DNA of 16,403 nt, taken from NCBI RefSeq assembly GCF_048403405.1, contig NZ_CP183130.1; one strand, 5' to 3'. The position numbers and the translations under genes were made by a program. Under the pieces are notes generated by a model. The model ran no database searches. It was given only the letters and a program-made list of their open reading frames with translations, and had not been told where the DNA came from. How positions within the stretch are numbered: position 1 is the first letter of the stretch; the number at the start of each line of letters is the position of its first letter. This document shows, in pieces, positions 6,659-8,317 of the stretch. Origin of the DNA: Escherichia coli. Its GTDB lineage: Bacteria; Pseudomonadota; Gammaproteobacteria; Enterobacterales; Enterobacteriaceae.

Positions 6659-7228
6659 AATGTATTTTAGGATGACCTATGTTGAATAGAACCTAAAACA
6701 AAACAAATATTAATAGGGGTCCGCTTGGAAAAGCGGAAATTTTCCCACGCTAAGAGAATTGAGTTGAACGAGTGGTTACATCCAGGCCAGCTAACTCACT
6801 GAACCCCGTACAGGATCAGACATTCGGTATCTCCTTCATCCTCTGAGGAAAACAAATGAATTAACTGCTTACGTATATGGATACATATACAGTATTAATT
6901 TATTAAGGAGAAAATGGCATGTCAAGATTTAATGATAGTGATTATCATTAACATGAAGTGATGTTACACCGTTCAGAAAGCCTGCTGACGCTGTGGCAGC
7001 ATCACAGTCTGAGTATTCTCTGGTGCAATACAAAAACCGGACTTTCCCGTAACAACAGACAATGTTACGGGAAAAGTTACAGAACTGAGCCACAAAATAT
7101 CTCAGTACCTGAGATGCATAAAAACACCGTACATATGTTTCTCAAAAGGGGGATGATCGTTATCCAGCCATTTCGGTGGATCGGTATGCAGAACACCAAT
7201 CTGCTTCATGCCGGTATGCTGCCTGGAT

Positions 7229-8317
7229 TTATCTCGCGCAGTAATCACTGTCTTCATATCCCATCGTTTCGATGACCACTCTGGCCGTCTTTCCGTCAGG
7301 AGCCCTTGCTGTGACAATGAAATCCGGCAGTACATATTTCTTTTCACCATTAACATAAACTTCTGTATCAAACAGGGGCCTTTCCAGACTTAATTCCGGC
7401 GTACCTGGCTTTCTTTTAAGCCAGCTGGCCACATTCAGAAGAGCAGTGAGCGTGTTTCGTTCCAGTTTGCTGTCCACAGGAACCGGACATGTCAGTTGAT
7501 AAAGAGCATGAGCATACCCTTCACTGCAGATGATTCTGCCATCGGCACTCCGGCAAAAAGCAAGAATAACCCAGTAAGGGGGACGTATTCCGCCCTGCGC
7601 TTCACCATTAATACTGATCCCCCGCACAGGTCTGAAGACCTGAATATTACCGTTCGCCCAGTGAATTTCCACAGCATCACGACAGATGTGCTGCGCCATA
7701 AAAATCTGAAAGAACATATGTTTTCTTCTGGCAGGCCAGTGTCGTTCTGAATTCTCCAGCGTTTCCATTAACCGCTCCTGAGACCTTTCAGACATTCCTG
7801 GCCGGAAATGGATAATTTCAGATAAGGATCTTCCCCGAATATACTCCTGCTGTAGTGTAACCTGCCGTATGGCATCAAGACACTCACGATAATTAGTCCG
7901 GATACGGGGATTAGCCAGGGAATCCAGTTTATTCAGCCCTGCATCTTCAATAAGCGACAGGAGTAAACGGCCAAGGCGCGGACGTTTCTTGCGAACGGAG
8001 GAGCGCTCACCATTATGGTAAGCAGAGCGGGTCTGCAGTCTGATAACAGAATTACTGTCATCAGGTGGTAAAAAGTTTCTGTAATTTATACGGGTGCTAA
8101 CGGGATGCCGGCTTGCTCCGAAGGATGTTTCCTCTTCATTTCCTGATAACTGACGATACATGGGGCATTCAGGTGCATGCTCATGATTAAAACTGGACAG
8201 ATAAAGAGTACCCGTATTGTTTTTAAGAGCAGCAAAATTCATGGCCGGCGAATCTCCCGGAATACAGTCACACTGTAACCATGCATCATACTCACCGCAT
8301 TTCCCGGAGAAGATCAT
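7229..8317 (-). CDS. Uncharacterised 362-aa protein with an N-terminal Cys/His cluster and a C-terminal PD-(D/E)xK-like nuclease motif; possibly 3'-truncated
   Basis: Intact 362-aa ORF. N-terminus CGEYDAWLQCDC...HEHAPEC suggests metal binding. C-terminus YVLPDFIVTARAPDGKTARVVIETMGYED resembles the PD...(E/D)-x-DG core of restriction-endonuclease-fold proteins. Weak RBS. A second minus-strand ORF (7102..7371) overlaps the C-terminus in another frame. Confidence 0.55.
   Translation of the reverse strand: MIFSGKCGEYDAWLQCDCIPGDSPAMNFAALKNNTGTLYLSSFNHEHAPECPMYRQLSGNEEETSFGASRHPVSTRINYRNFLPPDDSNSVIRLQTRSAYHNGERSSVRKKRPRLGRLLLSLIEDAGLNKLDSLANPRIRTNYRECLDAIRQVTLQQEYIRGRSLSEIIHFRPGMSERSQERLMETLENSERHWPARRKHMFFQIFMAQHICRDAVEIHWANGNIQVFRPVRGISINGEAQGGIRPPYWVILAFCRSADGRIICSEGYAHALYQLTCPVPVDSKLERNTLTALLNVASWLKRKPGTPELSLERPLFDTEVYVNGEKKYVLPDFIVTARAPDGKTARVVIETMGYEDSDYCAR

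Follow-up and report, generated by a model that had tools for sequence, protein, structure and literature searches.

The gene yagA is treated as part of the IncI1 plasmid backbone, with a name inherited from the annotation of R64 and ColIb-P9, and ISEcp1-blaCTX-M or Tn3 insertions frequently lie within or beside it (PMC4541600, PMC8004404). A 2020 paper lists yagA under genes of unknown function and renames the adjoining yafB as fopA (PMC7491321). We found neither experimental work on YagA nor a published cleavage assay in the literature. The closest solved relative of what is described below as its nuclease domain is archaeal Bax1 (DUF790, PF05626; PDB 6p66, 6p4o and 8gy8), a partner of the XPB helicase in archaeal repair with N-terminal and Cas2-like domains of its own that differ from those of YagA. 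The proposed metal site of Bax1 consists of E275, D305 and E318, and the D305A mutation (D301A in SsBax1) impairs cleavage by the nuclease domain (PMC7293015). A second point of comparison is DUF1173, described in 2011 as a family of proteins of ~400 aa whose N-terminal part bears the motif CysXCysXnHisX3-5Cys and whose C-terminal domain is PD-(D/E)xK-related and linked to DUF790; no conserved active site was found in the family (PMC3045609).

The window analyzed here is a stretch of 16,403 nucleotides from an Escherichia coli contig (NZ_CP183130.1). A first-pass annotation had placed in it an uncharacterised protein of 362 aa with a Cys/His cluster and a restriction-endonuclease-like C-terminus. 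That ORF (7229..8317, minus strand) and the overlapping out-of-frame ORF that had been listed beside it (7102..7371, minus strand) are both present, and both belong to yagA, which is part of the backbone of conjugative plasmids of the IncI complex; the 362-codon ORF is only its middle. Comparison of the region 6600-8900 with PLSDB by megablast matched 2,914 plasmid records; the top matches covered the entire query at 99.8% identity and were annotated as 'yagA: protein YagA', with a ProQ/FinO family gene adjoining, and the label 'protein YagA' stands on >1,100 IncI-complex plasmids. As reference we used NZ_CP026726.1, an IncI-gamma/K1, MOBP, MPF_I plasmid with an intact 448-aa YagA. After correction of three indels the window gene comprises 448 codons and a stop, and its translation is identical to the YagA of the reference. 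The window copy is thus near-identical to annotated YagA and lies in the same genomic position, and its 448-codon frame is broken at 7231, 8295 and 8418. The yagA of R64 and ColIb-P9 (IncI1; e.g., WP_001703911.1) is the same gene, with 99.8% DNA identity, the same 448-aa corrected product and the same placement, between a parA-like cassette and fopA and near repZ; unlike that copy, the window gene carries three private indels and has no intact ORF. A PK-repZ pseudoknot at 12084-12232 confirms the IncI-complex replicon. This is therefore an ordinary gene, already named and known, whose Pfam entry already terms the family endonuclease-like; the earlier view that the protein falls into no named family does not hold, since database records name it 'protein YagA' and Pfam PF27227 is assigned to its homologues.

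The ends of the gene move with the correction. The start at 8317 has to be given up, because the indels at 8295 and 8418 put the true start at 8448. Likewise, the AT-rich non-coding flanks that had been drawn around the 362-aa ORF are in part coding (7102-7228 and 8318-8448); the actual intergenic stretches, 6596-7101 and 8449-8801, have a GC content of 0.34-0.41, compared to 0.47-0.49 across yagA. The corrected ends are well supported, because a ribosome-binding site lies upstream of the ATG at 8448 and a terminator-like hairpin lies downstream of the stop at 7102 (Table 1). A promoter scan of the minus strand revealed no sigma-70-like promoter upstream of 8448.

In a base-by-base alignment with the reference, the yagA region differs by three indel events only, and 61-nt probes centred on each of them were used to search plasmid records for the same alleles (Table 1). 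The loss of CG at 8418 turns C4G4 into C3G3. The 3' frameshift that the first-pass annotation had suspected is borne out by the extra A at 7231 relative to NZ_CP026726.1: the next 43 residues (KSRQHTG...MHLRY) are the true C-terminus, and rather than ending at the ORF stop, as would have spoken against a frameshift, all homologues run on for ~43 residues. That reading had missed the two further indels which cut the 5' end, as well as the identity of the gene as the IncI backbone yagA. The 362-aa ORF consists of the authentic residues of coding piece 3 preceded by seven out-of-frame residues, MIFSGKC. If made as written, its product would lack the first 52 residues as well as K407 and the final strand and helix of the core, and would be predicted to be inactive. 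The '362-aa protein' is thus artefactual, produced by indels that break the frame of a known gene, and for the window the result is mainly a correction: it adds a corrected gene model for yagA and evidence of multiple private indels in the record. The ORF at 7102..7371 was considered as a separate overlapping gene and rejected, since in every intact copy of YagA its last 43 residues form the C-terminus in frame. Programmed frameshifting was likewise rejected, given the single uninterrupted frame in >1,100 relatives.

Neighbouring genes show defects of the same kind. The 200-aa fopA is split into two ORFs by a private change of AAA to AAAA at 8965 that is shared by 0/159 records, and an extra G at 11041 destroys the stop codon of repZ and adds 29 residues. 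Across 115-11040 the window differs from the reference by 2 substitutions and 5 indel events, and no record identical to the window was found in PLSDB or among 5,426 complete E. coli genomes. Since the changes in yagA are indel-only, private to this record, ORF-breaking and mostly changes of run length, the record appears error-prone, and the yagA indels are, from the sequence comparison, most likely sequencing or assembly errors. As fopA and the repZ stop codon are affected in a similar way, ORF calls from this record need caution. A genuine pseudogene, in which the plasmid itself carries real frameshift mutations, is an improbable alternative. It would suit a gene that is dispensable and often inactivated by natural insertions, the databases do hold many truncated YagA fragments, and the change of TTTT to TTTAT is no simple homopolymer-length error. 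Yet the other two yagA indels are run-length changes, one of them in a C4G4 palindrome typical of compression errors, and a decaying gene would have had to gain three independent frameshifts with zero substitutions in 1.35 kb, in a plasmid where private indels also struck fopA and the repZ stop codon, while none of the ~1,100 relatives has any of the three.

Table 1. Coordinates of yagA and associated features in the window, with the indels that break its frame
Feature	Position	Strand	Remarks
yagA, whole gene	7102..8448	-	Collinear with the 448-aa 'protein YagA' WP_001703911.1, NZ_CP026726.1
Shine-Dalgarno-like AAGGAG	8459..8464	-	10 nt upstream of the ATG at 8448
Terminator-like hairpin	7042..7075	-	12-nt perfect arms, then a T run; 27 nt past the true yagA stop
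Coding piece 1, residues 1-10 (MPMILVKKNP)	8419..8448	-	Family N-terminus M-x-LV-x-K conserved
Coding piece 2, residues 12-51 (GKVIRELSS...LLREM)	8296..8418	-	Frame differs from piece 1
Coding piece 3, residues 53-406	7232..8294	-	Authentic part of the 362-aa ORF
Coding piece 4, residues 407-448 and stop	7102..7230	-	Contains Lys407 plus the final strand and helix of the nuclease fold; not in the frame of piece 3
1-base insertion of A, TTTT to TTTAT	7231..7231	.	Private; ORF cut short after Arg406; 0/1,132 plasmid records
1-base insertion, C to CC	8295..8295	.	Private; 0/1,103 plasmid records
2-base deletion (CG lost at 8418), CCCCGGGG in relatives, CCCGGG here	8416..8421	.	Private; 0/1,115 plasmid records
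Putative zinc site	8165..8272	-	Codons C60 8270-8272, C62 8264-8266, H91 8177-8179, C95 8165-8167; conserved in 77 homologues
Central beta-rich domain, residues 245-324	7478..7717	-	Possibly OB-fold-like
Predicted PD-(D/E)xK nuclease domain, residues 326-448	7102..7474	-	Conservation, profile matches, AlphaFold model, structural neighbours
Catalytic candidates	E330 7460-7462; D376 7322-7324; E394 7268-7270; K407 7228-7230	-	

To place the corrected protein, we turned to its homologues. An exhaustive homology search gave 531 YagA-family representatives at E<=1e-3, and a word-indexed search gave 115 clusters, nearly all of 400-460 aa with a precomputed Pfam PF27227 (Endonuc-like_C) assignment; a second word-indexed search, run with the alignment, brought no further architectures or domain fusions. 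PF27227 was seen on homologues only, as an assignment precomputed on full-length sequences that include a 98%-identical cluster representative (P0001). Database fragments from which the C-terminal 43 residues are missing (P0003) have no such match, and by analogy with these short fragments the 362-aa ORF would probably fail it too. In an alignment of 77 full-length members, with identity down to about 20%, C60, C62, H91, S327, E330 and P358 are invariant. Conservation reaches at least 90% at W57, C95, P291, R331, K357, P375, D376 and F377 and, in the C-terminal part, at E394, M396, G397, Y403, K407 and M414. The family signatures are CxC...Hx3C, followed by (V)DSxxER ... KP ... PDF ... ExMG ... 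YxxxK. Both motifs to which the first-pass annotation had drawn attention, CDC...HEH...C and the C-terminal LPDFIV...RVVIETMGYED, are in the sequence. Its Cys/His cluster survives in part, as CxC...H...C, of which three residues (C60, C62 and H91) are invariant and the fourth, C95, reaches at least 90%; the first Cys of the cluster is lost, being an out-of-frame artefact. This conservation suggests that the N-terminal CxC...H...C forms a metal site, probably for zinc. YagA would then consist of an N-terminal metal-site domain, a central beta-rich domain, for which there is a weak hint of an OB-like fold, and a C-terminal nuclease domain.

The evidence for the nuclease domain comes from conservation, profile comparison and modelling. 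Structure prediction, which had been proposed as a check on the PD-(D/E)xK resemblance, yielded a confident AlphaFold2 model with the family alignment (pLDDT 89, pTM 0.88) and a PD-(D/E)xK fold. The modelled C-terminal domain begins with helix 328-345, which holds E330, and continues through strands that include 377-382, with D376 at its start, and 388-395, with E394 at its end, to helix 401-414 with K407, strand 419-423 and helix 435-444. This order of secondary structure agrees with that of the canonical PD-(D/E)xK core, so that the YagA fold fits it. Foldseek against the PDB ranked Bax1 first, followed by TnsA and EndoMS, with no match below E 1e-3, so only the ranking is informative; the structural neighbours of the domain also include the defence nucleases Can2, Cap4 and HamA.

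Profile searches lead to the same relative. Against PDB sequences, the family profile matched Archaeoglobus fulgidus Bax1 at E 0.002, aligning PDF...E..G...Y...K, such that P375-D376-F377 and E394 of YagA fall on P304-D305-F306 and E318 of AfBax1, with the downstream YxxxK aligned too. A search with the single sequence gave chance-level matches only. YagA has the three Bax1 motifs, E ... PD ... E; the alignment with 6p66_B and 8gy8_A spans PDF and E-x-x-G, and the match at DSxLE is weak. Both proteins can be written as DSxLE ... PDF ... E-x-x-G ... Y-x-x-x-K. Among the 77 relatives, DUF790 is matched by 41 at E<=0.1 and by 8 at E<=0.001. The Pfam-A search brought less: the 362-aa ORF had no match, and the 448-aa protein matched only DUF790 (PF05626), without significance (E 0.4 over 47 residues). 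PD-(D/E)xK enzymes are expected to have conserved acidic metal ligands and an active-site Lys, and YagA has both, with the Lys on the following helix and no ExK. At the ExK lysine position YagA has the conserved M396 and AfBax1 an Ala (E318-I-A), and both have a Lys on the next helix. With E330, D376, E394 and K407 invariant or nearly so, the earlier recognition of a PD-(D/E)xK-like C-terminus is upheld. As judged from these alignments and the model, YagA carries a PD-(D/E)xK nuclease domain of the Bax1/DUF790 type with a conserved catalytic set. YagA differs from Bax1 in its zinc site, its beta-barrel domain, the lack of a helicase neighbour and its confinement to bacterial mobile elements.

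Other nuclease families are more distant. Type II restriction endonucleases, Hjc and VRR-Nuc show no sequence-level relationship to YagA, which differs from them in having no adjacent methyltransferase and in its Lys on the downstream helix. The NCBIfam restriction endonuclease model BPTD_3080 was rejected as a family for YagA, the match being partial (E 0.066, 11 bits versus a cut-off of 800), and PHROGs gave no match. The architecture published for DUF1173 is present in YagA, as C60-x-C62 ... H91-x3-C95 and the nuclease fold at 326-448, and one YagA homologue cluster in UniRef is labelled 'DUF1173 family protein'. The DUF1173 model (PF06666) does not match YagA even at E<=10, and matches 4/77 relatives weakly at E<=0.1 (best 1.1e-3). 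The combination of a zinc motif with a PD-(D/E)xK domain was therefore already known from 2011 for this sister family; what is added here is that YagA is tied specifically to the catalytic motif set of Bax1/DUF790 and has a conserved active site, together with the weak OB-like hint. Whereas the YagA family keeps the E/D/E/K set, DUF1173 was reported to have no catalytic signature, and some relatives may accordingly be non-catalytic, a point against a nuclease serving maintenance.

The distribution of the family is that of a mobile-element gene. By tblastn, YagA-like genes occur in 1,443 plasmid records, of which 89% are predicted to be conjugative and whose hosts range from Enterobacterales to Rhizobium, Sphingomonas and Ralstonia; none was found among 50,697 phage records. 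Matches to yagA DNA are present in 1,139/5,426 complete E. coli genomes (~21%), almost all on plasmids, and 13% of these genomes have most of the searched region. We fetched 14 related loci (L002-L015), and all ten that were long enough to show neighbours are mobile elements. In L002 and L013-L015 the gene either follows a Rep3 initiator immediately or converges with it, and ParA/ParB, umuDC-like and ParM/StbA genes are close by, a complement of genes that the window shares. Elsewhere the homologue is divergent from a ParA cassette (L007/L008), lies between T4SS genes and SSB, coupling protein (T4CP) and relaxase genes (L004), accompanies ArdC and a ParB-like gene (L010) or KfrB and polyvalent proteins (L006), or sits in an island with integrase, AlpA and DUF3987 genes (P4-like) beside smpB (L012). 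Genes for RES-domain toxins lie within a few kb in three unrelated loci (L002, L007/8 and L010), and L012 also carries a DNA methylase and an AAA_5 gene. The family is thus restricted to plasmids, ICEs and islands, and is usually found near replication or partition genes; this survey of homologues in plasmid replication and partition regions is the further addition of the present analysis.

No partner gene recurs in these neighbourhoods. In the window, yagA is surrounded by a parA-like gene, a yafA-like gene, fopA and a hypothetical gene, with no cognate methyltransferase or antitoxin-like partner adjacent to it; the nearest annotated methylase in the reference plasmid is >7 kb from yagA, past parM. 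Helicase, methyltransferase or small partner genes do not adjoin the homologues with any consistency across the fetched loci. Genes with helicase domains occur 2-9 kb off in two loci, as an SNF2-related giant protein (L006) and a Helicase_C_4 protein (L010). An XPB-type helicase gene was not seen next to the homologue in any of the 14 related loci, nor next to yagA in the window, and the absence of such a partner is a second point against the maintenance nuclease. PADLOC defence-protein models gave 0 families at E<=1.

We favour, with a probability of roughly 0.6, the reading that yagA in this record carries three private indels, likely errors, and that its product is a metal-dependent, structure-specific endonuclease serving the mobile element. 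Catalysis would be carried out by E330, D376 and E394 with a Lys contributed by the following helix (K407) in place of an ExK motif, which would make YagA an active, Mg2+-dependent (divalent-metal) DNA endonuclease. It would recognise its substrate by DNA structure (fork, bubble or ss/ds junction, for example), as Bax1 does, with no modification partner involved; this mode of recognition is favoured because no such partner is found, because Bax1 cuts forks and bubbles and because an OB-like domain is possible. The enzyme may act in replication, maintenance or establishment of the element. Because resistance transposons often disrupt yagA in successful plasmids (PMC4541600, PMC8004404), it must be dispensable for replication and transfer, a further point against the maintenance nuclease, and an accessory role is therefore likely.

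The same facts have been weighed against two other functions. The first-pass annotation had offered defence, anti-defence or addiction as possible functions, and YagA could be a single-protein, restriction-like nuclease of defence or inter-element competition that cuts incoming phage DNA or rival plasmids, its zinc and OB-like domains sensing features of foreign DNA, e.g., free ends or ssDNA. A PD-(D/E)xK domain with a complete catalytic set would serve this purpose, and dispensability and frequent disruption are what accessory defence genes show; Can2, Cap4 and HamA as structural neighbours, the RES-domain toxin genes near the L002, L007/8 and L010 homologues and the DNA methylase and AAA_5 gene in L012 point the same way. 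However, the likeness to defence nucleases is one of shared superfamily fold only, no PADLOC model matched, window yagA has no adjacent cognate methyltransferase or immunity gene, and most loci show replication, partition and transfer neighbours and no defence island, so that we regard a defence function as rather unlikely. Still less probable to us is a catalytically inert protein, a DNA-binding regulator or an accessory factor of partition or replication, that has kept a nuclease-like fold. Such a role was proposed for DUF1173, which has the same architecture and was described without an active-site signature (PMC3045609); the rep and par genes that repeatedly adjoin yagA homologues, and the conserved Met (M396) at the position of the ExK Lys, would agree with it. 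But Bax1 too has no Lys at the ExK position and instead conserves one in the helix that follows, the acidic residues of YagA align with the experimentally supported metal-binding residues of Bax1, and E330, D376 and E394 stay invariant or nearly so down to about 20% identity, which a dead enzyme is not expected to conserve.

The structure-specific endonuclease that we prefer, as a predicted active Bax1-like nuclease with a zinc site, offers a hypothesis testable by mutation for a very common backbone gene. Resistance elements (ISEcp1-blaCTX-M and Tn3-type insertions) also land preferentially in this gene, which is present in ~1,400 sequenced plasmids. More tentatively, it is possible, if doubtful, that YagA and the other Endonuc-like_C proteins form an unstudied class of conjugative-element nucleases that act on ss/ds junctions of transferred or replicating plasmid DNA. 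In such an enzyme a zinc site and an OB-like ssDNA-binding barrel would be coupled to a Bax1-type catalytic domain, and either the intermediates of the element itself would be processed or those of rival elements attacked. If this were true, YagA would be a widespread factor, so far overlooked, that determines plasmid establishment or plasmid-plasmid competition, because yagA is found in about one in five complete E. coli genomes.

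The gene beside yagA, the ProQ/FinO-domain gene fopA (the newer name of yafB), encodes an RNA chaperone that has been described on pCol1B9 (PMC7491321). In the window, fopA carries a private additional A at 8965 (AAA to AAAA) that cuts the gene in two, leaving ORFs at 8802..9104 and 9064..9405; the relatives encode a single 200-aa protein, and the AAAA allele was found in none of the 159 matching plasmid records.

A further difference from L001, an IncI-gamma/K1 plasmid with intact yagA, lies in repZ/repA. Here, the window product is extended by 29 residues at its C-terminus because an additional G at 11041 abolishes the TAG stop codon (GTCTAGTGC to GTCTGAGTGC), and this G is probably another sequence error. 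Apart from this indel, the rep gene body (11156-11866) is the only substitution-rich segment relative to L001 and, since this is so, the rep of the window is a different Inc allele. The PK-repZ element is a pseudoknot controlling repZ translation in IncI-complex plasmids, and the copy predicted in the window, a strong Rfam match, fixes the replicon type. Window 1-120 has three further one-base insertions that L001 lacks, at 4, 7 and 114; they fall at the 3' end of the region of a stbB-like 'plasmid partitioning/stability' gene and are consistent with the record being indel-prone in general.

At the C4G4 run of yagA, the site equivalent to 8416-8421, a few PLSDB records (H48-H52, e.g., CP031283.1 49322-49383) differ from the window by one base, with a match length of 62 nt for a query of 61 nt; those PLSDB listings carry no yagA annotation. 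These records may carry nothing more than the intact C4G4 allele. It is also possible that frameshifts or sequencing errors recur at this run.

Loci L013-L015 (CP045204.1, CP059484.1) come from Rep3-type plasmids of Enterobacteriaceae with a yagA homologue 53% identical. Their replication initiator is unrelated to that of the IncI window, yet the maintenance gene set around yagA is retained: yagA, rep, parA/parB, umuD/umuC-like genes and parM/stbA are common to both (469-8448 in the window). The tandem array of 8-bp units that directly follows the parA-like/small-ORF cassette at 5670..6595 looks like a centromere-like (parS-type) iteron array. The RES domain is an NAD+-targeting, toxin-like domain, and RES-domain genes lie 0.5-5 kb from three unrelated YagA homologues, two of the three genes also containing a HEPN_RES_NTD1 domain. 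This proximity may reflect coincidence, in crowded plasmid accessory regions, or a real association.

Features in the window and in loci carrying YagA homologues
Feature	Record	Position	Strand	Remark
Tandem array	window	6591-6665		~8 units of 8 bp (CTTGTTAT)
fopA, ProQ/FinO-domain gene	window	8802-9405	+	neighbour of yagA
repZ/repA ORF	window	10953-12116	-	indel at 11041
PK-repZ pseudoknot	window	12084-12232	-	Rfam, 188.9 bits
RES-domain gene	L002	8144-9646		
RES-domain gene	L007	6312-6947		
RES-domain gene	L010	10803-12035
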